Assembly (NCBI GenBank): GCA_030390025.1
Contig: JASTWF010000332.1
Location: 434,001 to 498,000, forward strand
Direction of reading: 5' to 3'
DNA length: 64,000 nt
Source of the DNA: Squalus acanthias
Lineage: Eukaryota
Position numbers and translations under genes: made by a program. The notes under the pieces are model-generated. The model worked only from the letters and a program-made list of their open reading frames with translations, ran no database searches and was not told the origin of the DNA. Below are positions 3,354 to 52,375 of the stretch, piece after piece. How positions within the stretch are numbered: position 1 is the first letter of the stretch; the number at the start of each line of letters is the position of its first letter.

Positions 3354-3452
3354 AAGGCTGATATGTACAGCTTCGGAATGGTAATGCTGGACATGCTGTT
3401 TCAGTGCACAGCACAAGAACGCCAGAAGTGGAAGGATCGGATTGGACAATGT
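3354..3452 (+). CDS. EIF2AK4-like: GCN2-like exon, kinase subdomains IX-X: KADMYSFGMVMLDMLFQCTAQERQKWKDRIGQC
   Basis: ttccttcctgcag acceptor, gtaaga donor, 99 bp, phase 0-0. Matches the eIF2a-kinase K-x-D-x-[YF]-S-x-G...T..ER pattern (GCN2 KVDLFSLG...TASER). Confidence 0.9.
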
Positions 3453-3711
3453 GTAAGAATTTAACTTTACCCTAAACAATGACTAAATGACAGCTGTAAA
3501 CAAAAGATGTTTAATTCGGTTCGTCCCTTTTGGGAAGGCACTGACCTTTGTTGGACTGCTTTCTTGTTCTTTTTCGTCTTGTTACTTTAAACGCCAAATT
3601 GCACACACACTCAGTTGCAGTGATGTAGGATCAGATCTTTATTGAAACCTCATACAATCCACAAGTACACAAGTGTATGAGTGCACAGATCTTTTCATAC
3701 TACACCATTGC

Positions 3712-4215
3712 AGTGTGAGCGAACTGCTGAGACACCACACTTCACGATTCCAGTGTGAGCTCTTGAGACATCATACTCTCACGATTCCAGTATGAGCTCT
3801 TGAGACATCATACTCTCACGATTCCAGTGTGAGCTCTTGAGACATCATACTCTCACGATTCCAGTGTGAGCTCTTGAGACATCATACTCTCACGATTCCA
3901 GTGTGAGCTCTTGAGACATCATACTCTCACGATTCCAGTGTGAGCTCTTGAGACATCATACTCTCACGATTCCAGTGTGAGCTCTTGAGACATCATACTC
4001 TCACGATTCCAGTGTGAGCTCTTGAGACATCATACTCTCACGATTCCAGTGTGAGCTCTTGAGACATCATACTCTCACGATTCCAGTGTGAGCTCTTGAG
4101 ACATCATACTCTCACGATTCCAGTGTGAGCTCTTGAGACACCACACTTCACGATTCCAGTGTGAGCTCTTGAGACATCATACTCTCACGATTCCAGTATG
4201 AGCTGCTAAAGACAG
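3712..4215. repeat. 37-bp minisatellite, ~13 copies
   Basis: Unit CTCTTGAGACATCATACTCTCACGATTCCAGTGTGAG, near-identical copies. Confidence 0.95.
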
Positions 4216-4578
4216 ACTCACTCGCAATCTTATACTACATTTCACCTTTGATCATTACTTTCTATGTATACCACCAATAATTCATAGCACATCAAAGATA
4301 CATACAAATGACAACAGAATAACAGCATGAACTAAACAAACATGCACTTCCATAAACACAAGAGACCTAATGTCATAAACTTCCCATTCTCCTAAACACA
4401 AGTGACCAAGCTGACACATTCCAGACCGTTACAGTTATGGCTGAATGACTCTTACACATTCTTCTATTTTACTTTCCTGTGACGATATTCTTGTTTTAAA
4501 ATCCCCTTACACAATTTACAACCCGTGCTCAGCAGAAAGCTGTTTTAACTTTTAACTCATTGTGTGCTGGTCTCACAG

Positions 4579-4608
4579 ACAGCCCAGAAAGAACACCGAG
4601 GCACCCAG
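4579..4608 (+). CDS. EIF2AK4-like: Probable 30-bp exon: TAQKEHRGTQ
   Basis: tctcacag acceptor, CAG/gtaatg donor, phase 0-0. Weak similarity to GCN2 ...GEHAKQ. Confidence 0.55.
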
Positions 4609-4829
4609 GTAATGTGAACCCTCGTTCCCACAGCCTCCACTTAGTGTTTGTCCTCCGTGGAATCAAATGATCTTTTACAGTGCATAGTGTACACTTAGAT
4701 GCTTGCGTTTTCTTTTAAGGTTAAAGCAGTAACAACAAAGGTGAACTAAATCTTTATTCTTAAAATTACTGATTCCATTTTTAAAAACAAATTAAAATAT
4801 GCTTTTGATGTCTCCGCATTACTTTGCAG

Positions 4830-4907
4830 AACTCTCAATGCTACATACATGAACTTTTTGTTGACAAAACAAAGGCCTTCCTTTTGCAACCAGAATTCTT
4901 GAGCTTG
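4830..4907 (+). CDS. EIF2AK4-like: Exon: NSQCYIHELFVDKTKAFLLQPEFLSL
   Basis: actttgcag acceptor, consensus gtgagt donor, 78 bp open, phase 0-0. Confidence 0.7.
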
Positions 4908-4963
4908 GTGAGTAACTGAGCCATTTAAGGTTCAACTTTAGCAGCAGATTCTTTTTGAAGTAC

Positions 4964-5123
4964 AGTACTGAGGGAGTGATGCATTTTTGGAGGTGCCGTC
5001 TTTCAAATGAGACATTAAACTGAGGACCTGTCTACCCTCTCGGGTAGACATAAAAGATCCCATGGCACGATGGGAAGAAGAATCAAGTGTTCTCCTGGTG
5101 TCCTGATCAACATTTATCACTCA
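4964..5123 (+). mobile_element. Deu-domain SINE fragment
   Basis: GTGCCGTCTTTC..ATGAGACATTAAAC..AAAAGATCCCATGGCAC, shared with 21924-22400. Confidence 0.75.
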
Positions 5124-5184
5124 GCAATATTTACAAAGGCAGTACATTAGATTTGGTGAATTACAGGCCCTTAGCTTGATTTTG

Positions 5185-6400
5185 GTTACAGGCAAGTTGG
5201 TACAAAGGATCTTAGAGATACTGTATCACCACCTCAACAGAGAAGGGGTTATCAGAGGCTCTCAATGTGGAAAATGTCTTGCCTCACCAAGCTGAGAATT
5301 TTTTAAGGAATTTACTAGGTTGGTGGATCTAGGTAGCCCAGTTGACATTGTATGTCTTGATTTTCAAAAGGCCTTTGGCAAGGTGCCACGCAATAGTCTA
5401 CTTAATAAAACTGAGTCCTGTGGGATTAGTGGGCATTTGTTGAGTTGGATACGGAATTGATTGCATTCTCGTAGGCAGAAGATTGTTATTAATGGGGACC
5501 AGTTACTAGTGGAGACCCGCAGGGGTTGGTGTTAAGGCCGGTGCTTTTCATAATCTATATTAACGATCTGGATGAAGGCATTGGGGGAACTGTCCGCAAG
5601 TACGTGGGTGATACAAAGATTTATACGAGTGTTAGGACCTTAGATGAGGATTGCAAGCAGATATAGATGCGAGGGGGAATGGACTCACATCTGGCAGATA
5701 TCACTTAATATAGATAAATATAGTGTTCCACATGTTGTAATGCCAAGCATGTGCACACCATGCAGGGGTTGCGAGCTTAGGGTTGGTATGCGGGAGAAGA
5801 ACCTTGGTGTTCTAGTATCTGAATCTCTGAAGGTCCATGAGCAGTACCGTGAGGTTATTGTAAAAGTAAATAGAGATTGAGAATGTATTACCATGGCGAT
5901 TATATACAAAACAAAAAAACAATTTACTGTCCTCGTTTAAGACGATGGTTAGGACTCATTTAAATACTATGTCCAGTTTTGTTCACCTCTCGTGGTGGGT
6001 GATATAGAGGGCTCAGGAAAAGATTCAGAAAAAGGTTACTAGATTGGTATGTAGTTTATAAGTCCTTAGTTACCACAATAGGCTTGGCGAGTTGGGATTT
6101 TACTATAGAAAAGCATCGACTTTGAGGAGATTTGACTGAGATCTTTAAAATAATGAAATTATATGTGGATAGGCTATTTGAATTAGATAGGTTAAGGAGG
6201 ACCATAAGTTAGATAAGCGCAGAACTAGATTTGATGTCAGGGGGTACTTCTTTTCAAAGAGAGTTGTGGACCTCCGGAATAAGTTGCTGGTTCAACGAGT
6301 GCGGATTCACTGCAAACATTCAAAAGGGCGCTGGACAAGTTCCTGACTGCGGCCAGCATCACGAATATTGAAGGTGGTTGGGGTATTGGGGGGATGGGTC
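5185..6400 (+). mobile_element. Old degenerate CR1 LINE, RT and 3' part
   Basis: Decayed LDFQKAF.KVPH, PQG.VL.P.LF.IYINDL and CVQF.SP motifs with stops and frameshifts. Confidence 0.8.
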
Positions 6401-6723
6401 TCCCAGTCACCGTGGTGTCCTGGAACTTGTTTGATTGCTAGGATAAAGGTTTTAAAATGGCTGAATTTTAAAGCTATTAGAAGTTATCTTCAGGCAGTCC
6501 AAATGTGGTATATTTATACAAATAGAAGTTTATGGAAAATATTAAGTTAACTTTTCAATTGGTCCTCTGCATGTCTCACCCTCCATCAAGTTTGATGACT
6601 CATTAGAATTGTATGGTACAACAGTTAATCTTAGACTATATTGTAATGTGTACTAGCATAGACAGTTATAATTTGAAGTGAAGCAATCAGATTGCTTTAT
6701 TTCAACCTCGAATGTATAGTAAA

Positions 6724-6969
6724 AAGAAAGACTTGCATTTATATAGCTCCTTTCACGACCTCTGGATGTCCCAAAGCGCTTTACAGCCAATGAAGTACTT
6801 TTGAAGTGTAGTCACTGTTTTAATGTAGGAAACGTGGCAGCCAATTTACCCACAAACAGCAATGAGATAATGACTAGATAATCTGCTTTTTACTGGTGTT
6901 GGTTGAGGGATAGATATTGGCCAGGACAGCGGGGAGAACTCCCTTGCTCTTCTTTGAAATAGTGCCATG
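6724..6969 (-). mobile_element. SINE 3' half
   Basis: Reverse complement of the 3' half of the 21924-22400 SINE. Confidence 0.85.
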
Positions 6970-7160
6970 AATGTGTATTGATTTTGAATGTGTATTGATT
7001 TTGAATGTGTATTGATTTTGAATGTGTATTGATTTTGAATGTGTATTGATTTTGAATGTGTATTGATTTTGAATGTGTATTGATTTTGAATGTGTATTGA
7101 TTTTGAATGTGTATTGATTTTGAATGTGTATTGATTTTGAATGTGTATTGATTTTGAATG
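6969..7160. repeat. 17-bp tandem repeat, ~11 copies
   Basis: (GAATGTGTATTGATTTT)n, perfect copies. Confidence 0.95.
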
Positions 7161-7596
7161 GAGCCACCTGATTCCTTGGGCTGGATTTTTCCATCCTCGG
7201 CGGGTCCGGGATGGGCGTCGTCGGTGGCGTGTGGGGACCTCGCATCTGTGTTGATCCCGGCCTCCAACAAGATACTCCGATGATTAGACTTGTTAAGCCC
7301 GCCCTGCAAGGTTCCCGGCCAATTAATAGAAAGCAGGTTGGATGACGTCATTTGATGACGCGTCATCAGCCGGTTTCCTTAAAGGGGTCATGTCCAAATT
7401 GATTTTGACAGTTCTTCTGTCAGTGTTCTGCAGCATTGAGGTGCTGCACCCATGACTCCCTCCATATGTGGATAGACTGGAGAAGCTGGGGTTGTTCTCC
7501 TTAGAGCAGGGTTGTCAGGAGGACCTGGCTGCAGTGGCACAAACCTTTCAATGATCACAGTAGATCATGAAACGTTAATGCAAAGCCACACTCAAC

Positions 7597-7780
7597 GTCA
7601 CAGGACGGAGTGAGGAGACTCAGATCAAACTGTCACAGGACGGAGTGAAGAGACTCAGCTCAAACTGTCACAGGACGGAGAGTGAAGAGACTCAGATCAA
7701 ACTGTCACAGGACGGAGAGTGAAGAGACTCCGATCAAACTGTCAGGACGGAGTGAAGAGACTCAGATCAAACTGTCACAG
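7597..7780 (+). repeat. Five 34-37 bp monomers at the CR1 5' end
   Basis: GTCACAGGACGGAGTGAAGAGACTCAGATCAAACT repeated. Confidence 0.9.
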
Positions 7781-7849
7781 AAGTGTATTGTTTTAATTTA
7801 AATTAATTAAAGGGTAAATAATATTAATAAATTTAATTAATTACATAGA

Positions 7850-8806
7850 ATGGGAGAGCAGGTGATGTGTTACTGCTGCAATATGTGGGAGCTGGTGGAC
7901 ACCATTGATGTTCACGGTGATCACATTTGCAGTAAGTGTTGGCTGCTCGAGGAACTCCGGCTCCGTGTTGATGAGCTGGAGTCCGAGCTTCAAACACTGC
8001 GACACATCAGGGAGGGGGAGAGTTACCTGGACTCTGTGTTCCAGGAGGTAGTCACACCAATTAGATTAACTAATTCAGATGTAGCCCGTGATCAGGGACA
8101 GGAGGGTGTGACTACGAGTGAGGCAGGTACGGGGATCCAGGAGGTAGTGTTGGAGGAGCCGCAGCCCTTGCTCTTGTCCAACAGGTTCGAGGCTCTTACT
8201 CCCTGTGAGGACGGGAGCAGGGACTGCAGGGAGGATGAGCAACCTGGCCACAGCACCGTGGTACGGGGAGCCATTCAAGTGGGGGGAGTAAAAAGAAATG
8301 TTGTAGTGGTAGGGGATAGTATCATTAAGGGGATAGATAGGGTTCTTTGCAGCCGAGAGCAAGAGTCCCGAAGGCTGTGTTGCCTGCCCGGTGCCAGGGT
8401 TAAGGACATCTCCTCTGGGCTGGAGAGAAACTTGGAGTGGGAGGGGGAAGATCCAGTTGTCGTGGTCCATGTTGGTACCAATGACATAGATAGGACAAGG
8501 AATGAGGTTCTGCTGAGGGAGTATGAGCAGCTAGGGGCCAAATTAAAAAACAGAACCTCTAGGGTAGTAATCTCTGGATTACTACCTGAGCCACGAGCAA
8601 ATTTGGCTAGGGTAAATAAAATCAGAGAGTTAAATGCGTGGCTCAAAGACTGGTGTGGGAGAAATGGGTTTTGCTTCCTGGGACACTGGCACCAGTACTG
8701 GGACAGGAGAGAGCTGTTCCGTTGGGACGGACTTCACTTGGCCAGTGCTGGGACTAGAGTCCTGGCGAATCGAATAACTAGGGCTGTAGAGAGGGCTTTA
8801 AACTAA
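7850..8806 (+). CDS. CR1 ORF1p (zinc finger/leucine zipper + SGNH esterase domain), intact
   Basis: CxxCxM...CxKC followed by a heptad coiled coil; GDSII, CLPGA, HVGTND and DGLHL motifs. Confidence 0.93.
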   Translation: MGEQVMCYCCNMWELVDTIDVHGDHICSKCWLLEELRLRVDELESELQTLRHIREGESYLDSVFQEVVTPIRLTNSDVARDQGQEGVTTSEAGTGIQEVVLEEPQPLLLSNRFEALTPCEDGSRDCREDEQPGHSTVVRGAIQVGGVKRNVVVVGDSIIKGIDRVLCSREQESRRLCCLPGARVKDISSGLERNLEWEGEDPVVVVHVGTNDIDRTRNEVLLREYEQLGAKLKNRTSRVVISGLLPEPRANLARVNKIRELNAWLKDWCGRNGFCFLGHWHQYWDRRELFRWDGLHLASAGTRVLANRITRAVERALN

Positions 8807-8844
8807 TTAGTGGGGGGGAGGTTTCAAGAGAGCAAAAAATAAAA

Positions 8845-11783
8845 ATGTCAGCGGAGAAGGCAATAGAGCAAAGTAGCAGTGGGGTAATTAAAAACCAGAG
8901 CGTGTCAGGAAGGGACAGAATATATAAAGATAAAGGTAAAGTAGTAAAGGGGGTAAAAGCAGGAATAAATTGTCACAAAACATATTTAAAAGTTCTTTAT
9001 CTGAATGCACGCAGCATTCGTAACAAAATAGACGAGTTGACGGTACAAATAACTACGTATGGGTATGATCTTGTGGCCATTACAGAAACATGGCTGCAGG
9101 GTGACAACGACTGGGAATTAAATATGCCAGGGTATTTAACAATCAGGAAGGACAGGCAGGAAGGAAGAGGAGGTGGGGTAGCTATGTTAATAAAGGAAGG
9201 AATCACTGTATTACAGAGAAATGATATTGGGTCAAAGGATCAGGATAATGAAACAGTTTGGGTGGAGATAAGGAATAATAAGGGGAAAAAAACACTAGTG
9301 GGAGTAGTATATAGGCCTCCTAATAGTTGCAACTCTGCTGGAAGAAGTATTAATCAGGAAATAGTTGGGGCATGTAATAAGGGAACAGCTATAATTATGG
9401 GGGATTTTAACTATCATATTAACTGGACAAATCAAATTGGGCAGGGCAGCCTTGAGGAAGAGTTTATTGAGTGTATTAGGGATGGATTTCTTGAGCAGTA
9501 TGTAACTGATCCTACAAGGGGGCAAGCAACCTTGGACCTGGTCCTGTGTAATGAGTCAGGATTAATTAATAATGTCCTAGTTAAGGATCCCCTTGGAATG
9601 AGTGACCATAACATGGTTGAATTCCATATCCAATTAGAGGGTGAGAAGGTTGGTTCTCAGACAAGCGTACTGAGCTTGAATAAAGGAGACTATGATGGTA
9701 TGAGAGCAGAATTGATTAAAGTGGACTGGGAAAATAGATTAAAGGGTAAGACGGTACATGAGCAGTGGTGTTCATTTAAGGAGTTATTTTACAACTTTCA
9801 AAAAATATATATTCCACTGAGGAAAAAAGGGTGTAAAAGAAATGACAGCCATCCGTGGCTAAGTAAAGAAATTAAGGATAGTATCCAACTAAAAACAAGG
9901 ACATATAAGGTAGCCAAACTTAGTGGAGGATAGAAGATTGGGAAGTCTTCAAAAGACAGCAAAAAGTAACTAAAGGATTGATTAAGAAAGGGAAGATAGA
10001 TTATGAAAATAAATGAGCAAAAAATATAAAAACAGATAGCAAGAGTTTCTATAGTTATATAAAAAGAAAAAGGGTGGTTAAGGCAAACGTAGGTCCCTTA
10101 GAGGATGAGACCGGGAAATTAATGGTGGGAAACATGGAGATGGCAAAAATGCTGAACAAATATTTTGTTTCAGTCTTTACGGTAGAGGACACTAAGAATA
10201 TCCCAACACTGGACAAACAGGCTCTAGGGGGGGAGGAGCTAAATACGATTAAAATCACTAAGGAATTGGTACTCAGTAAAATAATGGGACTCAAGGCGGA
10301 TAAATCCCCTGGACCTGATGGCTTACATCCTAGGGTCTTGAGGGAAGTGGCAGTAGGGATTGTGGATGCTTTGGTAATAATTTTCCAAAATTCCCTGGAC
10401 TCAGCAAAGGTCCCGGCAGATTGGAAAACTGCTAATGTAACACCCTTATTTAAAAAGGGTAGTAGGCAGAAGGCTGGAAATTATAGACCAGTTAGTCTAA
10501 CATCTGTGGTGGGTAAAATTTTGGAGTCTATTATTAAGGAGACAGTAACGGAACATTTAGATAAACATAATTTAATAGGACAAAGTCAGCATGGCTTTAT
10601 GAAGGGGAAGTCATGTCTGACAAATTTGCTTGAGTTCTTTGAGGACATAACGTACAGGGTGGATAAAGGGGAACCAATGGACGTAGTGTATTTAGACTTC
10701 CAGAAGGCATTCGACAAGGTGCCACATAAAAGATTATTGCTCAAGATAAAAAATCACTGGATTGGGGGGAATATTCTGGCATGGGTGGAGGATTGGTTAT
10801 CTAACAGGAAGCAGAGAGTTGGGATAAATGGTTCATTCTCGGACTGGCAACCAGTAGCCAGTGGTGTTCCGCAGGGGTCGGTGCTGGGTCCCCAACTCTT
10901 TACAATCTATATTAACGATTTGGAGGAGGGGACCGAGTGTAACATATCAAAGTTTGCAGATGATACAAAGATGGGAGGGAAAGTAGAAAGTGAGGAGGAC
11001 ATAAAAAACCTACAAGGGGATATAGACAAGCTGGGTGAGTGGGCAGAGATTTGGCAGATGCAATACAATATTGGAAAATGTGAGGTTATGCACTTTGGCA
11101 GGAAAAATCAGAGAGCAAGTTATTATCTTAATGGCGAGAAACTGGAAAGTACTGCAGTACAAAGGGATCTGGGGGTCCTAGTGCAAGAAAATCAAAAAGT
11201 TAGTATGCAGGTGCAGCAGGTGATCAAGAAAGCCAACGGAATGTTGGCTTTTATTGCTAGGGGGATAGATTATAAAAACAGGGAGGTATTGCTGCAGTTA
11301 TATAAGGTATTGGTGAGACCGCATCTGGAATACTGCATACAGTTTTGGTGTCCATACTTAAGAAAAGACATACTTGCTCTCGAGGCAGTACAAAGAAGGT
11401 TCACTCGGTTAATCCCCGGGATGAGGGGGTGGACATATGAGGAGAGGTTGAGTAGATTGGGACTCTACTCATTGGAGTTCAGAAGAGTGAGAGGCGATCT
11501 TATTGAAACATATAAGATTGTGAAGGGGCTTGATCGGGTGGATGCGGTAAGGATGTTCCCAAGGATGGGTGAAACTAGAAGTAGGGGGCATAATCTTAGA
11601 ATAAGGGGCTGCTCTTTCAAAACTGAGATGAGGAGAAACTTCTTCACTCAGAGGGTAGTAGGTCTGTGGAATTTGCTGCCCCAGGAAGCTGTATCATTAA
11701 ATAAATTTAAAACAGAAATAGACAGTTTCCTAGAAGTAAAGGGAATTAGGGATTACGGGGAGCGGGCAGGAAATTGGACATGA
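8845..11783 (+). pseudogene. CR1 ORF2 (AP endonuclease + reverse transcriptase), disrupted
   Basis: NARSI, ITETWL, GDFN, SDH; QHGF, PQGSVLGP, FADD. Frameshift near 9928 and in-frame TGA at 10014. Confidence 0.93.
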
Positions 11784-12059
11784 GGCTGAGTTCGGATCGG
11801 TCGAGGCCCTGTGGGTGGCGTAGCGGGCCCAGGGGCTGAGTGGCCGGGTCCTGCTCCTACTTCTTGTGTTCTTTAGATTTGAGGTGAGGATCAGATCAGC
11901 CATGATCTTATTGAATGGCGGAGCAGGCTCGAAGGGCCGATTGGCCTACTCCTGCTCCTATTTCTTATGTTCTTATTAACCTCATCCTCCTGTGCCACTC
12001 ATCACATCCCCATCACTCTGCCTTCCCTACCCTACTCCTGCACATCCTTACACCAACTT

Positions 12060-14920: not shown

Positions 14921-15166
14921 CTGCAGACATGTCGAGAGTTGTTGCAGGATGATCCTCTGAAAAGGCCCAGTGCCGAGGAGATCCTTCACAGTAAGGATAT
15001 GGGCCTTCTGCCTGAGGAAAGGAGGAGACTGGAAGAAATACTGAATCAAACTCTTTCATCACCAGATAAAGACACACACAGAGAAACCATCAAGTTGATT
15101 TTTGAACGGCTTATTGGAAAAGTCTCCAAGGATCAAGAATCTGCTTACTATCATGCGCTTAGTGAG
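14921..15166 (+). CDS. EIF2AK4-like: Exon, kinase subdomain XI and linker: LQTCRELLQDDPLKRPSAEEILHSK...YYHALSE
   Basis: tttttcttttacag acceptor, GAG/gtattc donor, 246 bp, phase 0-0. Resembles GCN2 LLNHDPAKRPTATELLKS...ELHEVLHHTL...YRTMMAQIF. Confidence 0.92.
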
Positions 15167-15353
15167 GTATTCTCAGTAACTTAAGTATGGAACGCTAACA
15201 TAATACAATATTGCAAAGTGAAGATTTTTTATTTACTCTTGAATCATAGAAATTACAGCACAGAAGAAGGGCATTTGATCCTTCATACCTGGGCTGGTGC
15301 TAACTCTTCAACTGGACCTAACTAGTCCCATTTCCCTGCCCTTTCCTTGTAAG

Positions 15354-16410: not shown

Positions 16411-16475
16411 GATGGGCACAAATGTTTCTGCAGCAAACCAGTGATTACACAACTGTGTCCTATTTTTCACTTCAG

Positions 16476-16560
16476 ATCATGGACAGGGTCTTTACCATTT
16501 CATCATCCAGGTCGTGGCGATCTGTCGAAAGAGAACTGAGGCTGATATTTCAAAAGCATG
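16476..16560 (+). CDS. EIF2AK4-like: Exon, start of HisRS-like domain: IMDRVFTISSSRSWRSVERELRLIFQKH(G)
   Basis: tttttcacttcag acceptor, gtacgt donor, phase 0-1. IFQKHG corresponds to GCN2 IFKRHG (motif 1 region). Confidence 0.9.
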
Positions 16561-19572: not shown

Positions 19573-19694
19573 GTGCTGCTCCTGTGGATATTCCCGAGAT
19601 TATTCCATTCAGTGTGGGGACGTCCTGTCGCTGTGACGTCACAACAATGCTAAGCAGTGATGGGTATATTTATGAAATGACGCTGGATCACAAG
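19573..19694 (+). CDS. EIF2AK4-like: Exon: (G)AAPVDIPEIIPFSVGTSCRCDVTTMLSSDGYIYEMTLDHK
   Basis: cttctgctccag acceptor, AAG/gtatgt donor, 122 bp, phase 1-0. Colinear with GCN2 GAVQLCTPLLLP...FMDHSGMLVMLPFDLR. Confidence 0.9.
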
Positions 19695-20073: not shown

Positions 20074-20123
20074 GTGCCCTTTGTGCGTTTTGTTCATAAA
20101 AACAAAATAAGTGAAATTAAAAG
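20074..20123 (+). CDS. EIF2AK4-like: Exon: VPFVRFVHKNKISEIK(R)
   Basis: ctctgtttacag acceptor, AAG/gtaaat donor, 50 bp, phase 0-2. Matches GCN2 IPFARYVARNNILNLKR. Confidence 0.92.
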
Positions 20124-21381: not shown

Positions 21382-21535
21382 GTACTGCATGAAGAAAAGG
21401 TTTCTTCCGAATGGGCTTCCTTATCAAATACACTGTGCGTTTGATATCATCGATCTCGAGCAGGACTCCATCTTCGCTGTTGCAGAGTTAATTCAAATTG
21501 TGTCCGAGATTGTGAGCAAATATCCTGTAGCTGGG
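21382..21535 (+). CDS. EIF2AK4-like: Exon, HisRS-like motif 2: YCMKKRFLPNGLPYQIHCAFDIIDLEQDSIFAVAELIQIVSEIVSKYPVAG
   Basis: ttgttgtaaag acceptor, gtaagg donor, 154 bp, phase 2-0. YC...CAFDI...AE.I matches GCN2 YCIERVFRP...ECAFDIV...AEII. Confidence 0.92.
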
Positions 21536-23618: not shown

Positions 23619-23717
23619 AAACAATACAGACAGCTGATTATTAGTCACACACTGTTGGAAGAAACCCTCTTCAAAAATGGAAGTCCAGAATGTGGCTCAC
23701 AGGATCACTGTCCAAAG
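23619..23717 (+). CDS. EIF2AK4-like: Exon: KQYRQLIISHTLLEETLFKNGSPECGSQDHCPK
   Basis: ttatcttaacag acceptor, AAG/gtattt donor, 99 bp, phase 0-0. SHTLL...G.PE corresponds to GCN2 NHTMLL...GIPE. Confidence 0.85.
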
Positions 23718-24605: not shown

Positions 24606-24755
24606 TCCTGTGTCGGGTTGTCATTCGATGCCGTGTCCCAACAACTGGAAACGTTCTTGCAGCTGAATCCACACTTTGATGGATGCATCACTCGGTGTTG
24701 GGAATCACTGACAATTCTACAGAAGCTATTTGTGGATTCTGCTTTCACGGTAAAG
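24606..24755 (+). CDS. EIF2AK4-like: Exon: SCVGLSFDAVSQQLETFLQLNPHFDGCITRCWESLTILQKLFVDSAFTVK
   Basis: ttccatttcattag acceptor, AAG/gtaaga donor, 150 bp open, phase 0-0. Helical pattern like GCN2 ...GLKDLEEVVGLLKKLGIKLQ. Confidence 0.8.
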
Positions 24756-36058: not shown

Positions 36059-36178
36059 GTAGGAAGTTTACGTGGTACAGAAGAAATAAACCTGAAGCAT
36101 TACGAAGGATTGCTTTTTGCTTTGTACAATGCAGCTGGATCTGGCTTTCTGGTGTTCGGAGGGCAGTATACAAAACTA
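36059..36178 (+). CDS. EIF2AK4-like: Exon: VGSLRGTEEINLKHYEGLLFALYNAAGSGFLVFGGQYTKL
   Basis: Long pyrimidine tract + cag, gtaaga donor, 120 bp, phase 0-0. HYEGLLF and GGQY correspond to HisRS/GCN2 HNGIIF and GGRYD. Confidence 0.9.
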
Positions 36179-39700: not shown

Positions 39701-39802
39701 CTCCGAAGTTTTGATGTGTCCTTTGGGGAGTTGCCCGAGCTGTCTGCTGCCGGCCTGAACATCGACCTCCAGAAACTGGTAGAAGCAGACGCAAAGGCAA
39801 AG
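39701..39802 (+). CDS. EIF2AK4-like: Exon, motif-3 region: LRSFDVSFGELPELSAAGLNIDLQKLVEADAKAK
   Basis: ctgtag acceptor, AAG/gtaaaa donor, 102 bp, phase 0-0. AAGLNIDLQKL corresponds to GCN2 AIGVSIAIDKI. Confidence 0.85.
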
Positions 39803-40316: not shown

Positions 40317-40445
40317 AAACCTGACAGGACGGACAAAATCTGTATTCATTGCACTCCTGACACAAGTGCGGAAATCTGTTTTAAGTTGGCAAGAAAGTTT
40401 TGGGAAGCAGGCATACGCATTAGATTGATGACCAGACTTAATGAG
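40317..40445 (+). CDS. EIF2AK4-like: Exon, anticodon-binding-like domain: KPDRTDKICIHCTPDTSAEICFKLARKFWEAGIRIRLMTRLNE
   Basis: gcacag acceptor, GAG/gtaatg donor, 129 bp, phase 0-0. LARKFWEAGI corresponds to GCN2 LTQKLWTAGI. Confidence 0.9.
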
Positions 40446-44041: not shown

Positions 44042-44116
44042 AAAAAGGTTACAGCTGAGAGTCTTGAAAAGGGAAGGATATTTGTTCTACAGCCACAGGG
44101 TGAAACAGATTTAAAG
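44042..44116 (+). CDS. EIF2AK4-like: Exon: KKVTAESLEKGRIFVLQPQGETDLK
   Basis: ttttgcttctttttag acceptor, AAG/gtaaga donor, 75 bp open, phase 0-0, expected position. Sequence similarity is weak. Confidence 0.7.
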
Positions 44117-45935: not shown

Positions 45936-46092
45936 GTTGCCCATTGTGGCACATGTGCTTGGCTCCTTCTTAACACATGATAGACAATGGACATGACTCT
46001 CTGGCCTCCTTTCACTCTGACCACCAACCTGACCACGCAAGTGTCGCGGAGCCTGCAATGTGGAGCTGCCTCAGCCAAAATAACAGATGCCA

Positions 46093-46362
46093 TCACGCCA
46101 ACAGTTTGCCATCACCTAATTTTAAAACATTCACACAGGGATGGCATTTCATCAATAAACAGAAACAATCACCCAATCTGCACACAGATCTGGAGGTTAT
46201 ATCCCTTGCCAGCTGGACCCACACAGCCTTGGTTTCTTTGGGAGGCCTCTTCCTCCCAGATGAGAGGAAGAGCACCTCCCTGCTAGCTCTCGCCCCCTCA
46301 ACCAGCATACCCAGCACCTCATCCGAGAACCTCGGGGAGGCCCTTGCCTTGGAGCTGGCCAT
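46093..46362 (-). pseudogene. Harbinger Myb/SANT-like DNA-binding protein remnant
   Basis: PRFSDEVLGMLVEG...REVLF...W..LA..I trihelix/MADF-like N-terminus. Confidence 0.75.
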
Positions 46363-46709
46363 TCTTCAAGGAGATAAAAGTTTGGAGGTGGTGCAGCATC
46401 GACCAAAATCCAGTGGAATGAGCCAACGCAGCAAGCAGCCCTTAAATGAAGCTGGATAAGTGACGTCAGCAGAGGCGAGTTTCAGTCCCAAAAGACTCAT
46501 TGGCCCAGGGGAACCCACACCTCTGAAATCAACTGGCCAATTCGGGAAAAATCGCAAATTTTTCCCACCTGACAGTGGAGGCGGGTTTGGAACCCACCCA
46601 AACCGAAACCCGCCTCCAACCCTCCTCCATTGGGAAAATCGCCCCCCTAATGTCTCTGGAAACCTAAATGCATGACAATCTCCATCACTTATACTGCCCA
46701 CGTTTATAG

Positions 46710-46767
46710 CGGGTAACCATTTACTATCACCATAGAAGTCAATTAGAAAGGCAACCTGTTGAGCGCG
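46710..46767 (+). CDS. EIF2AK4-like: Probable exon: RVTIYYHHRSQLERQPVER(G)
   Basis: gtttatag acceptor, G/gttagt donor. Phase 0-1 bridges the flanking exons. Weakly like GCN2 VKSFEKERQTEKRV. Confidence 0.55.
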
Positions 46768-46881
46768 GTTAGTTTGGGAAGACTCCCCTGTTCCGTAATC
46801 TATTTGCAAGTCGTTAAGGTGTGAGTACCTTAATTACTCAAACCCTTGTACTTACCGATTTAAAAACTCTGCTGATTTCAG

Positions 46882-46934
46882 GCAAACTCCGGTCTTCTGG
46901 CAGCTGTTCAATAAACTCTTCGCACCTCATTAAG
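46882..46934 (+). CDS. EIF2AK4-like: Probable exon: (G)KLRSSGSCSINSSHLIK
   Basis: ctgatttcag acceptor, AAG/gtgcga donor, phase 1-0. Ser-rich linker as expected before the CTD. Confidence 0.55.
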
Positions 46935-47699
46935 GTGCGATTACCTTGGCTACTTATATTTGAGTCTGTTAATCGGCCCTCAGTAAGAAGCAACCGTCCC
47001 CCTTATATAACGGGCAAATCGCGTTAATGCCAACCCACCCGCAATAATCGGTGGGGACTGTAATCACACAGAATTTGTGTTGTCTCAATTTACCTTTAGA
47101 TTAGTACTCCGTTTAGAAAAGCCTCAGACTGTTTTATTATTTGGGCTGTTTTGACTTTCGGGCGATTGACCGGTGGAGTGAGCTGGTCGGCCGCCCATTC
47201 CAGTGACATTGAGGCGGATCCAGCCCCATGATTTTAAGGCCCCAGCCACATTTACATTTCGCCAGGCGATCTGCAGGCACTCCGACCCAGCACGCCGGAA
47301 TTGGCAAAGGAAATCGGGCTGGAGATGCCAGCAAGGTAAGTCACGCGGAGGGTTGGGGGTTGTCCCGGGGGTGATAGCGGCCCAGTTTATTTTTGTGGGC
47401 GCTGATCCGCTGCCATTTCTGACGGCAAAGTGGCTCCCGCAGACTCCGACCAGATCCTACCTAAAATAGCAATCGGGGTCCTCTTTACGTTAATGGACCC
47501 CAATTTCCATATCCAAAGGGGCCTGTCGCAAGTGGGGCAGAAACTTCATAATGGAATTTTAACAATCTGGGCAAATCCAATACTCAGGATTGAGAAATAC
47601 ATTTTCTTGTTTATCAGAGTTAGTTAGGCCATTAAGCTAACCTGTCAGAGGTCAGAGTACAGAGGAAAATTGTAAGAAAGTACTCTCCACATGGAGATG

Positions 47700-48715
47700 T
47701 ACTCATTGGCAGGCTGTGACTACTGGTGTCCCCCAGGGCTCTGTACTGGGGCCAGAGCTTTTGACGATATTTATAAATGACTTGGAGGAAGGAATAGAGA
47801 GCTGTAGATCTAAGTTTGCTGACGACACTAAGTTAGGTGGAACACTAAGCAGTGTAGATGGGAGCAGAAAGTTGCAAAGGGACATTGATAGAATAAGTGA
47901 GTGGGCAAAACTGTGGCAGATGGAGTTCAATGTGGGAAGTGTGGGATCATCCAATCTGGACCTCAAAGACAGATCAGAATATTTTCTAAATGGCAAGAAG
48001 CTAGGAACCATGGATGAGCAGAGAGATTTATGGCTCTAATTCCAGAAATCACTAAAAGCTAGTAGACAGGTACAAAAAATAATTAAAAAGGCTATTGGAA
48101 TGTTGGCCTTTATTTCAAGAGGGCTGAATACAAAGGGGTGGAAGTTGTGTTACGGTTGTGCCGAGCTCTAGTTAGACCCCATCTGGAGTCCTGCAATAGG
48201 TTCTGGGCACCGCACCTCAGGAATGATGTATTGGCCTTGGATAGGGTGCAGTGCAGATTCACCAGAATGATACCAGGGATAAAAGGGTTAAATTACGAGG
48301 ACAGGTTCTGTAGACTAGGCTTGTATTCCCTCGAATATAGAAGATTAAGGGGTGATCTAATTGAGGTTTTAAGATGATTAAAGGAAATGATAGGGTAGAT
48401 AGCGAGAAACGATTTCCCCTGGTAAGAGAGCCCAGAACAAGGGGGCATAACCTTAAAATTAGAGCTAGGCAGCTCAGGGGTAATGACAGGAAGCACTTCT
48501 TCACACAAAGGGTAGTGGAAATCTGGAACTCTCCCCCAAAAAGCTGTTGAGGCTGGGGTTCAGTTACAAATTTAAAAACTGAGATTGATAGATTTTTGCT
48601 CGGCAAGGGTATTAAGGCAGGTAGCTAGAGTTAAGATACAGATCAACCATGATCTAATTGAATGGCAGAACAGGCTCGAGGGGCTGAATGGCCTACTCCT
48701 GTTACTATGTTCCTT
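47700..48715 (+). mobile_element. CR1 RT/3' fragment
   Basis: GVPQGSVLGP, KFADDTK, LVRPHLE and 3'UTR. Confidence 0.92.
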
Positions 48716-48984
48716 CCTCTGTTCCTAGAGCTTCTGTCTATTGTCAGGTAATTATACTATATGCAAAAAAGGAGACCTATAGAATGACAAACATGTTGTA
48801 TAGTTAAATATGTATAATTTAAAAATAAGCGTCCTTTCCCAAACTCGCCTCTGAACAGAGTATTTGTGAGATGTTAAGTGGTCGAGGAGATGCAATGTAA
48901 AATATTATTGAGCTTGTAGTGGGAGCCAATGTGCTCCTCATTTTTCGTGCTTTGATTCCTTCAATGTGTTACTTTATTCTGCAG

Positions 48985-49115
48985 TACAAACCACCAATGC
49001 ACACCACACATTTTTTGGACATTAGCTCACAAAGCACAATGTCTGGCAGCTCCCTCGCTAGGTTACAGGAGCAGGTTTGCAGATATATTCAAAGCAAACA
49101 AAATGGCACCATTTG
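48985..49115 (+). CDS. EIF2AK4-like: Exon, CTD start: YKPPMHTTHFLDISSQSTMSGSSLARLQEQVCRYIQSKQNGTI
   Basis: ctttattctgcag acceptor. Similar to GCN2 LSASTRRRYETQVQTRLQ. Donor is either gtaaag at 49116 or gtttgc at 49075. Confidence 0.65.
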
Positions 49116-49539
49116 GTAAAGTTCCACGCAAGAGATCAGTAGCTAAAATTGAGACACGGAGGCAACCTTCAGGCACAGATCGCAAACTGGTTGGGAAGTA
49201 GGAGGTTGTTGTTGTTTCATATGAGGGGGAAAAGCTTATAATGGGATGTCTAGTTTGGCGATCCATTCGATGGCCTCCTGAGATGCCGAGTGGAGAAATG
49301 AAGTGCCTCCCCCAATAGATCTCAGTGGGCAGGTTGATGTGATGTGTTCCATGGTCTGGGATTCGTGGCCACATTCACACTTTTGGTTATCCCTCATCTT
49401 CCACTTGTGGAGCAGGTGGCCGCATCGTCTCTGCCCTGTGCGGATTGGGTTGAGCGCTGTCCACTATCTTCGAGGGAGGTCGAAGCCAGGGGCCTCTGCT
49501 GTTGGCTCAGTGATGAGGTGTTGGTTCTTTATGTTGCAT

Positions 49540-50477
49540 GAAGTAGGAGGTAGAGAATTGGGATAAAGGGGGCACTTTTGGATTGATAGGTGGTGAAAAA
49601 TGTCAAGGACTCCAGCTTTTCACTCTACATACAAGTGACCTGGATTTGGAAATAGACGACAGTATTTCCAAGTTTGCAGATGATACTGCGTAAGAGGTCG
49701 ACTGAATTGCGAAAAAAAGTACAGAAAGCTGCAAAAGAACACACCAAATATTAAGCAAGTGGGTGGAATGATGGCAGATGCCATCATTTAATGTAATAAA
49801 ATATGAAGCAGGACACTTTGGACGTAGTATGGCTGGTGGGAATACAGTCCAGTGGGGAAGCACTTAGAATTGAAGATGAACAAAGTGATTCTGGGGTCCT
49901 GATATGTTAGTCTTTCAAAGTTGGCATGCAGGTGCAAAAAGTAGACTAAAGGGCAAATGGAAGGTTGGTCTTCATTGCAAAAGTATAGAATACCTCACCT
50001 TAGGCAGGATATACTGGCCTTTGAGGGAGGCCAGTGACAATTCAATGGGCGATACTTGAGATGAATGATGAGATACTGGGTAAAATTGGGTTTTACTGGA
50101 TAGAGATGAAAAGGTTAAGGGGTGGTCTGACTGAGGTGTTTAAAATAATAAAGGGAATTGATGAGGTGATAGAGAAAATTTCTACTCTGTAGTAAGGGAA
50201 ACCAGAACAAAGGGAAGCCGTCTTAAAATGAAAGCTAAACAAACTCAGAACAAAAAAATCTTCACTCAAAGGGTCGCAAGAATGTGGCGCGAACTGCCCC
50301 AGAAGGCTTTGCAAGTGAAATCAATTGAGACGTTTAAAAGGGAGATAGATAAGTACTTAGGAATTAAACATATTAAAGAATATGGAGAGCGGGCAAGGAC
50401 TCTGCATTAAAGAGATGGAACAGTCATGACGAACGAAGTTGATGGACCAAATGGCCTACTCCTGGTTCTATGTTCTT
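49540..50477 (+). mobile_element. Old CR1 fragment
   Basis: Decayed KFADD, FTQRV..MW..LP and 3'UTR. Confidence 0.7.
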
Positions 50478-50920
50478 AACCTTTGACCCCCAGAACAGTT
50501 TTCACCCCGCGCCTAACCTGTATAGCCCAACTGTATTTTGATCCCAGCTGGTGGATTAAATGTTGTGACAGTTGAAATGGATGCAGCATGTTAAAATGAA
50601 CAGAATTAGTGGCATTAATATGATAATCAGAGATATTAGGGGCATTCAAAATGCAGTTAGAAGCAAGGCTGGGTACAGTGGGATAACAGAGGGATGAGCT
50701 TTGATTGGCTAAATAGCCATTTTGCCTCTTTCTTAAATTGGCCAAAATATAGTATTTAACACTTTTGCTTCAAGCATTGCTGACTTTATTTGTTATTAGC
50801 TGCATTTACATTGTGGAGAAAAGCTTAATTGTTAATTAGAATTTGCAGCGAATTAATGTACTTTTGGCATATCTGCCTTGATGTGCAGCCACGTTGAAAG
50901 TACTTTGTGGAAGCAAGCAG

Positions 50921-51013
50921 TTCTCTCAATAGAAATATGCATTTTTGTAAAACGTCTTTTACCTTGCTGCTTGGATTTCTAAAGCATGAAATTAAAAGTT
51001 GCACAGCATGGAG
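50921..51013 (+). CDS. Candidate CTD exon: SLNRNMHFCKTSFTLLLGFLKHEIKSCTAW(R)
   Basis: Open frame ending GAG/gtatta in phase 2, like the penultimate GCN2 exon (..LKLVCDEIYNIK). Acceptor is weak and ambiguous. Confidence 0.35.
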
Positions 51014-51481
51014 GTATTACTTAGCCCCAGCCTTTCACAAAGTTTAATATATTTGGAGCAAAAAGTACTTCGGAGAAGATAATGATGAGATTATAGGAAA
51101 TGCACGAGGGGATTAGGAAAAGTCATGTCTTTGAGTTAAAGGTATAGGGTGAAATTCTAGAATGGAAAAAAAAACGCAAATCTTGGAAATCTGAAATAAA
51201 AACTGAAAATGGAAGTCTATCCGCACACACAACAACCAGAAAACACTCGCACACTCTGCTTTTTGCCTTACCATTTAACCAACAAAAGGACAAAATGATT
51301 GAAGTATACGTGAACACGCCGTGTGAATGAGTATTGAGATCACATGCCCAATGACAGTCTATTACTTATTTCTTATTTACTCATCAAAAATGCAATTAGC
51401 CACATTTGGATTCCCAATGAGCCACATACGGCTAGTGATTATACAACACTGGTCTGGGAGAAGTAGGATGGCCAGAAGCAG

Positions 51482-51706
51482 ATTGAGAGGTCGCACAACA
51501 CCAGGTTATAGTCCAACAGTTTTATTTGAAATCACAAGCTTTCGGAGCTATCGATTTGCTCCTTCCTCAGGTGAACTTCACCTGAGGAAGGAGCAAATCG
51601 ATAGCTCCGAAAGCTTGTGATTTCAAATAAAACTGTTGGACTATAACCTGGTGTTGTGCGACCTCTCAATTTTGTCCACCCCAGTCCAACACCGGCATCT
51701 CCGCAT
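51482..51706. mobile_element. Palindromic Penelope-end insertion with two hammerhead cores
   Basis: Fold-back 51482-51670 plus tail; 11-bp direct repeat CAGAAGCAGAT at 51473 and 51707. Confidence 0.85.
51578..51620 (+). ncRNA. Minimal hammerhead ribozyme-like motif
   Basis: TCAC-CTGAGGA-AGGAGC(aaatcgata)GCTCC-GAAA-GCTT-GTGA. Confidence 0.55.
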
Positions 51707-52320
51707 CAGAAGCAGATGGCCATGTCATTCATACAAACTGGCACAAACTGGAGGAGCCACAGTCATCAGGCTGACTTACACCAGAAGAGGAGCAGCCAGG
51801 CGGTATGTTTGCTTTAGAGGAGTAAATACAGGCACTATGCTGGATCAGGACCAAAAAAAAGCAATGGGACTCCTAGTCGGAAGGCTGGGCCGGGAACCGC
51901 TCCTACCTGCAGGCTGAACCCGATGGCTGAAGCTGGGTTACCAAAGTTCCCCGGGAGTGAAAAGGAGGCGATGTTCCAAAGCTGCTTTGGCCGAGCTCAA
52001 AATGATTGGGGGTGGGGTGGGAGAGGTCATGACCCCCCGACCCCCCCACTGTGTATAGAAGCTTTGTTAAATACAGATGAATGCAAGGGGCAGTAATCTG
52101 TTTCATTTCAGTTTTAGCAGCATACATTATCCAGTTTATGTAAGTCAATTAACTCCTAGAAACTATTGTCTGTAGTCAATCACAGTACGTTTTATGGCAC
52201 GTCTTTCATTTTGGCACTGGCTCATTTAGTTCTACTTAAAACTGATGTGTCTGCACAGCAGTGCTCTGCTGAATGAGATCAAACAGTTGTGTAATCATCT
52301 AACTTAATGTTATCCTCCAG

Positions 52321-52375
52321 GTTAATGTTGCTTTTATATCACTCTGTTTCGCTTGTGCGCATGAAACAAACTATT
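52321..52375 (+). CDS. Candidate CTD exon: (R)LMLLLYHSVSLVRMKQTI
   Basis: ttatcctccag acceptor, phase 2. Hydrophobic strand resembling the GCN2 terminal VSVLFLYSY. Donor uncertain. Confidence 0.4.

Follow-up and report, generated by a model that had tools for sequence, protein, structure and literature searches.

The window, the whole 64,000-nucleotide stretch of Squalus acanthias DNA analyzed here, contains the intact back two thirds of a GCN2-like gene. Based on tblastn with ten shark and ray proteins and junction optimization, we placed 15 GT-AG exons on the forward strand between 3354 and 56351 (Table 1). Each of the ten queries gave 12 to 15 colinear, same-strand matches in the window, and one of them, P0001, gave 15 (E values of 1e-4 to 1e-44). 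These are exons 9 to 23 of the gene; 8 further exons lie upstream on the same contig. The full model of 23 exons encodes an 877-amino-acid protein, with every intron GT-AG and no internal stops. The spliced window portion is 1,683 nt long, in frame and likewise free of internal stops, and the reading frame closes with a TAG in exon 23.

Table 1. Exons of the GCN2-like gene located in the window
Exon	Position	Strand	Length (bp)	Phase	Content	Evidence and remarks
9 of 23	3354..3452	+	99	0-0	Kinase subdomain IX and helix-alphaG T-x-x-E-R motif	tblastn, junction optimization; weak Pkinase match, profile positions 175-203
10	4830..4907	+	78	0-0	Kinase C-lobe	tblastn, junction optimization
11	14921..15166	+	246	0-0	Kinase end, both junction helices, and linker	Best tblastn match, E 1e-44; borders are stop points of contig pieces from 4 runs
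12	16476..16560	+	85	0-1	HisRS-like motif 1 region	tblastn, junction optimization, GCN2 comparison
13	19573..19694	+	122	1-0	HisRS-like core; length and phases as in the canonical GCN2 exon	
14	20074..20123	+	50	0-2	Length and phases as in the canonical GCN2 exon	
15	21382..21535	+	154	2-0	Motif 2 region, with Leu replacing the motif-2 Arg	
16	23619..23717	+	99	0-0		tblastn, junction optimization
17	24606..24755	+	150	0-0	Shortened insertion domain; canonical GCN2 has two exons here	Absent from one annotated isoform, P0007
18	36059..36178	+	120	0-0	Motif 3/HisB region, reads GGQYT	
19	39701..39802	+	102	0-0		tblastn, junction optimization
20	40317..40445	+	129	0-0	Anticodon-binding-like domain start; length as in the canonical exon	
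21	44042..44116	+	75	0-0	Anticodon-binding-like domain	tblastn, junction optimization
22	53677..53771	+	95	0-2	Anticodon-binding-like domain end and basic tail start	
23	56273..56351	+	79 (including TAG stop)		Basic tail	tblastn, junction optimization

An earlier note, made from these letters alone, had described a multi-exon gene with canonical splice sites and no stops, comprising at least 13 exons between 3354 and 52375. The gene and its open frame were borne out, with thirteen exons between 3354 and 44116 and two more beyond 52375. The start of that span is an exact acceptor; its end was misplaced, as exons 22 and 23 lie past it and tblastn with junction optimization supported no exon in the window from 44117 to 52375. 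Two exons that it had singled out (exons 13 and 14) proved exact in length and phase. The introns are filled with repeats, as it had also noted, and these include a LINE, an LTR element, a DNA transposon, and tandem arrays. In this assembly, the locus sits on a 532-kb unplaced contig. Our model is 91.2% identical (800/877) to P0001, a RefSeq-type "eIF-2-alpha kinase GCN2-like" entry; RefSeq already gives the sequence this name, and it is not new to databases. Relative to P0001, the model is 11 residues shorter in the activation segment, at a site upstream of the window, which could be due to a missed micro-exon.

The same genome carries a canonical EIF2AK4 on a separate contig (G000:C1:97,245,380-97,364,116), with exon matches covering gar GCN2 residues 116-1634 at 35 to 82% identity, and so the gene described here is not the sole GCN2 locus. 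The GCN2-like gene shares approximately 25 to 29% identity with canonical GCN2 over 46 to 96% of its length (mostly 88%), consistent with the second, divergent GCN2 lineage that the earlier note had suggested. Compared with GCN2 of its own genome, the protein is 33.4% identical (145/434) from the C-lobe to the HisRS-like part. In our tree, the GCN2-like family forms its own clade with support of 100/100 and is not the ortholog of the genome's EIF2AK4. Six introns fall at the identical alignment column and phase as in the same genome's GCN2, 5 more have equal phase and lie within 14 columns, and three exons (122, 50, and 129 bp) match in length between the two genes. The agreement in exon boundaries, first noticed against human GCN2, therefore holds against this nearer comparison gene. 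These shared positions, phases, and lengths show that the GCN2-like gene is a DNA-level duplicate of GCN2; by common descent evident in gene structure, it belongs to the GCN2 (EIF2AK4) family in the broad sense.

The family was found in sharks and rays only. A word-based protein search returned 10 clusters, all from sharks or rays (1,202 to 2,064 bits), before the next match, canonical GCN2, at 249 bits, and a HMMER scan covering 1.84 billion representatives gave a single cluster, at 1,509 bits, with scores then dropping to 273. Neither search, each covering a very large protein set, turned up a GCN2-like model outside sharks and rays. Among named sharks and rays, at least 12 species have full-length models, on contigs of 81 to 324 Mb. 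Across sharks and rays, sequence conservation is strong in both the kinase and the HisRS-like parts. Orthologs compared pairwise are on average 87 to 88% identical over the kinase lobes, 86% over the junction and linker, and 87% over the HisRS-like core, with lower values for the kinase insert (55%) and the tail (59%). Branching inside the family matches the species tree. The gene had been proposed to be an old, fast-evolving duplicate; fast evolution applies to the long stem branch (3.8 changes per site) and not to the crown branches, which are short (0.03 to 0.13). The duplication may predate the divergence of cartilaginous and bony vertebrates, with the duplicate lost everywhere else. Our literature search found no paper describing this shark and ray gene.

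The predicted protein consists of a short N terminus, a kinase with an insert, two junction helices, a HisRS-like domain, an anticodon-binding-like domain, and a basic tail. Pfam identified a Pkinase domain in 4/4 orthologs (E values of 7.6e-48 to 1.5e-51), and the closest solved relatives of this part are GCN2 kinase domains, followed by PERK, HRI, and PKR. The G-loop, catalytic Lys, HRD, DFG, and APE are all present, so the upstream kinase exons are not disabled. The predicted kinase retains its catalytic, activation-loop, and helix-alphaG residues: Lys50, Glu68, Asp252, and Asp270 (the Lys, Glu, HRD, and DFG positions) are kept in 9/9 or 10/10 family rows, and activation-loop Thr308 and Thr313 in 10/10, as are Thr351, Glu354, and Arg355 of helix alphaG. 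The last three form a T-x-x-E-R motif that is near-invariant in canonical GCN2 (73, 72, and 74 of 75 rows) and that we take to be the mark of eIF2alpha recognition. Their retention suggests that the protein is a putative eIF2alpha Ser51 kinase.

Several modules of canonical GCN2 are missing. In canonical GCN2, the RWD domain binds GCN1, and the C-terminal domain (CTD) is ribosome binding and auto-inhibitory. No RWD (PF05773) was detected in 4/4 orthologs at E values up to 1; the GCN2-like proteins begin only about 20 to 40 residues before the G-loop. The pseudokinase is also absent, with one Pfam kinase domain per protein and an alignment with GCN2 that starts from residue 591 of 8t7t, at the true kinase. 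A weak tblastn search of the gene flanks found no RWD-, pseudokinase-, or CTD-like exon, including no RWD-like exon in 74 kb upstream and no CTD-like exon in 42 kb downstream.

The HisRS-like domain is placed directly C-terminal to the kinase by modeling and homology. An AlphaFold2 (AF2) model of the sensor part (pLDDT of 73.5) matched best, by Foldseek, to the human GCN2 HisRS-like domain (8t7t_A, E value of 2.2e-22, TM of 0.65 on the target), although its alignment included canonical GCN2 rows and the model leans towards the GCN2 fold. The phmmer match to 8t7t extends through residues 21-629. In Pfam searches of 4 orthologs, PF13393 (tRNA-synt_His) scored 14.3 to 23.5 bits, below the cutoff of 25, and PF12745 was not found. 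Hydrophobic residues of the junction helices are kept in 10/10 family rows, and residues of the sensor are replaced. At the motif-2 Arg position (R1120 in yeast), 60/75 canonical rows have Arg and 10/10 family rows have Leu, so that the canonical aromatic-Arg pair has become Phe-Leu with the aromatic residue, Phe566, retained throughout. The yeast Y1092 position is Tyr, His, or Phe in 55/75 canonical rows and Leu in 10/10 family rows. HisB, canonically GGRYD (Arg in 57/75 rows, Asp in 65/75), is GGQYT in 9/9. By a crude count over kept columns only, the catalytic-like domain carries a net charge of -6 to 0 in the family, compared with +3 to +6 in 8 rows of bony-vertebrate GCN2 and -1 in this genome's own partial GCN2. 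After the anticodon-binding-like domain comes a basic tail of 35 amino acids, with a net charge of +14 and low model confidence.

We predicted the structure of a homodimer from two copies of residues 440-862, which scored 0.69 against 0.00 for the best of 3 controls. The interface was symmetric, with contact agreement between runs of at least 86% and a partner pLDDT of 77. Of proteins whose solved structure pairs two copies of one chain, 21/30 attained this mark, compared with 0/23 of those solved as single chains; among eukaryotes, 17/29 pairs attained it, yet only 1/7 of those without an older solved relative did. The predicted pass may reflect model memory, because solved HisRS and GCN2 dimers exist.

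These features suggest that this shark- and ray-specific GCN2 paralog is probably an active eIF2alpha kinase, dimerized through its HisRS-like domain, with no GCN1 or ribosome docking and an altered sensor. The HisRS-like domain and junction helices would hold the kinase as a dimer. Given the loss of the modules for GCN1 docking, ribosome docking, and auto-inhibition, and the substitutions at the motif-2 Arg, at its aromatic partner, and at the HisB Arg and Asp, the kinase would bypass canonical gating by GCN1, the ribosome, and uncharged tRNA. Its output might then depend on the amount made, on the variable insert or the activation segment, or on some other ligand. In the available text of PMC11606652, yeast and human GCN2 kinase/HRSL constructs are active without tRNA or ribosomes, the other GCN2 domains are proposed to be auto-inhibitory, and GCN2 stripped of its extra domains is argued to be persistently active and harmful. 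If a lone core is harmful, as those sections hold, its retention for hundreds of millions of years implies some restraint. According to the available part of PMC11363354, yeast Y1092C is constitutively activating, and motif 2 is needed if GCN2 is to be activated by tRNA, ribosomes, and the P-stalk. Since canonical GCN2 needs motif 2, its replacement here could mean lower activity rather than unlocking.

A bolder version, which we put forward only tentatively, is that this is a natural minimal GCN2 of sharks and rays that shed its docking and off-holding modules and rewired its motif-2/HisB pocket, making it an extra integrated-stress-response kinase with a novel input, retained for roughly the age of the shark and ray crown group. 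The input might be, for example, RNA or a metabolite sensed by the remodeled pocket, or plain control by expression level. The different input that the earlier note had envisaged is suggested by the lost domains and replaced motif residues.

The protein might alternatively be a short, subfunctionalized GCN2 that still senses starvation, with uncharged tRNA bound by the HisRS-like and anticodon-binding-like parts. It would then be akin to an isoform truncated at the N terminus, and the basic tail would substitute for the C-terminal domain that binds ribosomes. We consider this rather unlikely. The whole sensor module is retained (77 to 87% conserved among orthologs), its fold matches that of GCN2, Phe566 is kept, and the charged tail would suit the role; however, the motif-2 and HisB replacements, the missing RWD for GCN1, and, by the same crude count, the less positive catalytic-like domain all argue against it. 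In yeast, Y1119L/R1120L impairs tRNA binding and activation, according to the available part of PMC11363354.

It is improbable that the kinase is active and has exchanged eIF2alpha for a different substrate or moved to another compartment, with the tail as a possible nuclear or nucleolar signal. The very long stem branch, the new tail, and the lost regulatory domains would fit such a shift, but the invariant T-x-x-E-R motif and the solved eIF2alpha kinases as nearest relatives do not. More doubtful still is a role mainly as a partner of canonical GCN2, tuning it up or down through mixed HisRS-like dimers. Both genes occur in one genome, a symmetric interface was predicted (for the homodimer), and HisRS-like domains are described as constitutive dimers in the available text of PMC11606652; however, the two HisRS-like parts share only about 33% identity, and the invariant catalytic, activation-loop, and substrate-recognition residues would be superfluous in a pure modulator. 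Finally, a functionless decaying duplicate or annotation artifact, which the unplaced contig, repeat-filled introns, and absence of an RNA-labeled run among the matches listed might suggest, is very hard to reconcile with an open frame and intact splice sites across 23 exons, full-length models on large contigs in at least 12 species, 87% domain identity across sharks and rays, and a family tree that matches the species tree.

The GCN2-like paralog resembles canonical GCN2/EIF2AK4 in its order of eIF2alpha-type kinase with insert, junction helices, HisRS-like domain, and anticodon-binding-like domain, in its best sequence and fold matches, and in its intron positions and phases. It differs in length (877 versus about 1,650 amino acids), in lacking the RWD, pseudokinase, and C-terminal domains, in its replaced motif-2 Arg and HisB Arg/Asp, in its low identity (25 to 33%), and in occupying a separate locus found in sharks and rays only. 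Authentic histidyl-tRNA synthetase has the same class II catalytic-domain fold, an anticodon-binding domain, and a catalytic-domain dimer (predicted for the GCN2-like protein); in contrast, the GCN2-like domain lacks histidine- and ATP-binding residues, falls below the Pfam tRNA-synt_His threshold, and is fused to a kinase.

Textbooks list four eIF2alpha kinases in vertebrates. The title of PMC5025754 likewise credits vertebrates with four. Another extra eIF2alpha kinase limited to cartilaginous fishes, PKR-sis, is described in the available part of PMC11305385 as Ser51 dependent in yeast once forced to dimerize; it differs in having no domain besides the kinase (residues 260-537, Lys294) and in being the sister of PKR instead of GCN2. 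The supplement of that paper does not contain the S. canicula GCN2-like accessions. The GCN2-like gene would be a second lineage-specific stress kinase of cartilaginous fishes, beside PKR-sis.

The closest functional parallel may be the engineered kinase/HRSL constructs of PMC11606652 (K. marxianus residues 578-1511, and human), which, in the text available, combine kinase, junction helices, and HisRS-like domain and phosphorylate eIF2alpha without tRNA or ribosomes, a feature of the constructs. Those are laboratory truncations of canonical GCN2, whereas the GCN2-like gene, known here from sequence, is natural, has a long history of its own, and adds a basic tail and changed sensor residues. 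The kinase and HisRS-like core exists as a separate natural gene, kept under selection in a whole vertebrate class, and offers a ready test of the model, as put in the available text of PMC11606652, of an intrinsically active core held off by other domains: either the core is restrained by another means, or these animals tolerate and make use of an eIF2alpha kinase that is constitutively dimeric.

We modeled the GCN2-like gene on contig C2584 (532,040 bases; the window is C2584:434001-498000, plus strand) of the S. acanthias assembly (G000; 3.71 Gb, 3882 contigs), optimizing each junction against P0001, its closest ortholog, with GT or GC permitted as donors and AG only as acceptors. By tblastn, ten shark and ray GCN2-like proteins each gave 12 to 15 colinear plus-strand matches in the window, and the model has 15 exons there and 8 upstream (C2584:404097-433942). 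All 22 introns are GT-AG, and the spliced sequence of 2634 nt consists of 877 codons and a stop codon, without internal stops; the window encodes residues 318 to 877. The predicted protein shares 91.2% identity with P0001 (800/877) and 79.4% with P0002 from sawfish. The earlier note had proposed a divergent GCN2 gene at 3354 to 52375. Its acceptor at 3354 is clean, with an ORF encoding a kinase subdomain-IX-like peptide, and its exons at 19573-19694 (122 bp) and 20074-20123 (50 bp) were recovered by a crude splice-site scan. Both of its ends had to be moved, the start to 30 kb upstream of the window and the end to 56351; none of the ten orthologs matched 44117 to 52375 by tblastn. A Pfam scan of 150 of the 437 plus-strand ORFs of at least 38 aa, in the first 22 kb, returned one weak kinase exon and LINE ORFs. 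The flanks of the gene hold 235 ORFs of at least 85 aa, and at such lengths mostly transposons are expected.

The model lacks 11 activation-segment residues of P0001, in a region upstream of the window. Exon 7 is only 34 bp long (area G000:C2584:428714-433256), repeat-like sequence lies directly 5' of it, and the missing peptide is encoded in no frame of the preceding intron. These residues may truly have been deleted, or the gene may use another acceptor or contain a micro-exon that the model missed. In relatives, annotated isoforms omit phase-0 exons without breaking the frame. Exon 17 (window positions 24606-24755) is missing from P0007, and exons 18 to 20 (36059-40445), which encode motif 3 and the beginning of the anticodon-binding-like domain, are missing from P0009. 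Such isoforms may represent splice forms without a sensor, or artefacts of gene modeling.

The introns contain several mobile elements and tandem arrays (see the table). The Ty3/Gypsy-like element of intron 17 carries a single unbroken frame with protease, reverse transcriptase, RNase H, and integrase domains, and it is bracketed by two 23-bp arrays that are open in all three frames.

Mobile elements and tandem arrays in the GCN2-like gene (window positions)
Feature	Position	Location	Strand	Detail
37-bp tandem array	3728-4204	directly downstream of exon 9		12.9 copies, 97% matches
17-bp tandem array	6968-7160
37-bp tandem array	7597-7780
CR1/L2-type LINE	7841-11780	intron 10	+	GDSL-esterase-like ORF1, AP endonuclease, reverse transcriptase
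Second reverse-transcriptase frame	12151-13485	intron 10	-	strand opposite to CR1/L2-type LINE
Ty3/Gypsy-like LTR retroelement	25507-32178	intron 17	+ (frame)
23-bp tandem array	25507-26678	intron 17		51 copies
Ty3/Gypsy-like frame	26930-30904	intron 17	+	1325 aa
23-bp tandem array	31120-32178	intron 17		46 copies
Harbinger/PIF-type DDE_Tnp_4 transposase frame	45321-45932	intron 21	+	E 2e-26

Contigs from at least 20 sequencing runs matched the window; the runs listed are guessed to be RNA or are of unrecorded kind, and none of them is on record as RNA. For four runs (X1, X2, X5, and X7), repeats dominate the matches on 4810-24800, and the 15 joints listed (559 others) include no exon-exon joint. 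Exon 11 (14921-15166) was matched by contigs of 337 to 507 letters from four runs in three studies, from 14920 (15024 in X7) to 15164 (15155 in X5) and with 0 to 3 other letters. Three of these contigs run on for a further 13+119, 23+164, and 271 letters with no match there, and the fourth has 196 letters unplaced. Contigs bounded in this way fit spliced cDNA and, with no exon-exon joint among those 15, give a weak hint of expression.

When the whole genome was searched with gar GCN2 (P0049), exon matches formed a chain at C1:97,245,380-97,364,116, covering residues 116 to 1634 at 35 to 82% identity. This stretch takes in the RWD, pseudokinase, and kinase domains of GCN2 as well as its HisRS-like and C-terminal parts. 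Because this canonical EIF2AK4 chain lies on C1, the GCN2-like gene is not the genome's sole GCN2 locus in canonical EIF2AK4 synteny, the case that the earlier note had set against its own proposal. P0001 is 25 to 29% identical to canonical animal GCN2 over 46 to 96% of its length, mostly 88% (E ~1e-62 to 1e-72). Among solved structures, human GCN2 (8t7t, E 2.4e-70) is its closest relative, and the alignment extends from the kinase G-loop through the first half of the HisRS-like domain.

We rebuilt the corresponding GCN2 exons on C1 and aligned them with the GCN2-like protein from the kinase C-lobe on, where identity is 33.4% (145/434). Six introns share column and phase exactly, five more share phase and lie at most 14 columns apart, and three exon pairs are equal in length (122, 50, and 129 bp); the GCN2-like gene lacks one intron that the canonical gene has in the insertion domain. 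In the kinase part, visual comparison also shows coincident junctions: the one following the G-loop exon, the two flanking the exon that ends just before HRD, and the one preceding subdomain IX. Judged by this gene structure, the GCN2-like gene is a DNA-level duplication of GCN2, because intron positions, phases, and exon lengths are shared; the same features rule out a retrocopy.

The family is confined to sharks and rays in our searches. The 40-residue translation of the 122-bp exon, compared with a large protein collection, gave 10 of 10 candidates at 85 to 97% identity, all named "eIF-2-alpha kinase GCN2-like," from ten shark and ray species and 725 to 916 aa long. A word-based search among proteins of similar length returned ten family clusters (sharks 8, rays 2) at 1202 to 2064 bits, followed by canonical GCN2 at 249 bits, and in an exhaustive HMMER scan of 1.84 billion cluster representatives a single family cluster scored 1509 bits and the next match 273 bits. 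Of the best ten unnamed or doubtful next matches, two are unnamed clusters and the others are a plant kinase and GCN2 of mollusc, insect, and mammal. Cluster members added two species, zebra shark and cloudy catshark. In the protein sets searched, as distinct from genomes, we found no family member in chimaera, lamprey, or bony vertebrate.

To place the family, we built a maximum-likelihood tree of 32 rows and 837 columns (10 family, 9 vertebrate, 8 invertebrate, 4 fungal, and 1 plant GCN2), with isoform P0009 excluded. Family members form a single clade (100/100), whose stem measures 3.8 changes per site and whose crown branches measure 0.03 to 0.13; its internal order matches the species tree. 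The family falls within animal GCN2s (98/95) and outside bilaterian GCN2s (86/87), a placement that could be a product of long-branch attraction. Constraining the family to join vertebrate GCN2 cost 1.42 lnL units (p-AU 0.326). Constraining it to join the same genome's GCN2 cost 14.97 lnL units (p-AU 0.026), which mildly disfavors a recent duplication within the cartilaginous-fish lineage, a result that depends on one partial canonical sequence and a very long branch. These costs are compatible with duplication at the base of vertebrates, and an older one is also possible.

Pfam detected a strong kinase domain in all four orthologs scanned and the HisRS family below threshold (14.3 to 23.5 bits versus 25), with no RWD or HGTP_anticodon2 detected. 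A genome search with PF12745 (HGTP_anticodon2) gave no match, nor did its controls. Four canonical GCN2 queries revealed no RWD-, pseudokinase-, or CTD-like exons in 74 kb upstream and 42 kb downstream, in a search that barely detected true exons; matches outside the gene all had E above 3. Mean identity among orthologs is highest in the two kinase lobes (87 to 88%), the HisRS-like core (87%), and the junction/linker (86%); it is 77 to 80% in the motif-3 and anticodon-binding-like parts and lowest (55 to 59%) in the kinase insert, activation-segment insert, and tail. The kinase insert (P0001 residues 102-190; exons 2 and 3 of the gene, upstream of the window) is the least conserved part at 55%, and retains a short S-V-E-W motif also found in canonical animal GCN2 inserts. 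The C-terminal tail of 35 residues has a net charge of +14; comparison of sensor-domain net charge with canonical GCN2 gave no clear message.

The structure predicted from an 85-row alignment has a mean pLDDT of 73.5 (36.7 from a single sequence). Confidence is low in the kinase insert (102-190), the activation segment (277-309), and the tail (864-893), as well as at residues 1-4 and 631-647. The solved structures that the model resembles most are HisRS-like domains of GCN2 from human, yeast, and K. marxianus (E 2.2e-22 to 1.2e-18), followed by true HisRS enzymes and then GCN2 kinase domains; the alignment included canonical GCN2 rows, so the model is not independent of the GCN2 fold. A two-copy prediction of residues 440 to 862 passed with a score of 0.69 (best of 3 controls, 0.00), with at least 86% of contacts shared between runs and a partner pLDDT of 77. 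The mark is reached by 21/30 solved one-chain pairs and 0/23 solved single chains, and in eukaryotes by 17/29 pairs, yet by 1/7 without an older solved relative. Structures of HisRS dimers and GCN2 dimers have been solved, and the pass is thus read as likeness, not binding.

No family row in the 85-row alignment that covers these positions deviates at the catalytic Lys, the Glu of alphaC, the Asp of HRD and of DFG, the two activation-loop Thr, or the Thr, Glu, and Arg of helix-alphaG; we take the three helix-alphaG residues to be the eIF2alpha-recognition motif. The hydrophobic junction-helix residues are retained, aligned to K. marxianus I1003, L1007, and I1010; L1007A abolishes activity in K. 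marxianus GCN2, according to PMC11606652. The sensor differs from canonical GCN2: the yeast R1120 position is Leu in 10/10 family rows versus Arg in 60/75 canonical rows, the Y1092 position is Leu in 10/10 versus aromatic or His in 55/75, and HisB reads GGQYT (9/9) in place of GGRYD. In PMC11363354, yeast Y1119L/R1120L impairs tRNA binding and activation, and motif 2 is needed for tRNA, ribosomes, and the P-stalk to activate Gcn2; its Arg makes a cation-pi contact with an aromatic residue whose substitution, Y1092C, activates Gcn2 constitutively.

PMC11606652 reports phosphorylation of eIF2alpha by kinase/HRSL constructs in the absence of tRNA and ribosomes, also after RNase treatment, and proposes that the HisRS-like dimer and junction helices drive an active kinase dimer that the remaining domains auto-inhibit. 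From this core-construct model and the dimer prediction, we infer that the GCN2-like protein would be an active eIF2alpha kinase, dimeric via its HisRS-like sensor domain, needing neither GCN1 nor ribosome docking, and with a remodeled sensor pocket. Less probably, it is a short GCN2 still gated by tRNA, which the retained HisRS-like fold speaks for and the Leu replacements speak against; a modulator of the canonical GCN2 encoded on C1; or a kinase with a new substrate or new location, which the retained helix-alphaG residues speak against. A dead gene would sit poorly with an uninterrupted frame and the conservation among sharks and rays.

We found no description of the gene in the literature searched, with most subscription journals outside its scope; where "GCN2-like" is used in the papers listed, it refers to protist or plant kinases. 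The most relevant survey, PMC11305385, describes an extra kinase of cartilaginous fishes, PKR-sis. We rejected its identity with the GCN2-like gene, as the PKR-sis kinase domain comprises residues 260 to 537 with Lys294 and the accessions do not match; the catshark GCN2-like accessions are absent from the supplement of that survey. The shark gene would resemble the kinase/HRSL constructs of GCN2 (PMC11606652), being the same core, naturally made, and PKR-sis is a distinct kinase (PMC11305385), both being extra kinases in cartilaginous fishes. Together with PKR-sis, the GCN2-like gene suggests that the eIF2alpha kinases of cartilaginous fishes may number six, not four.
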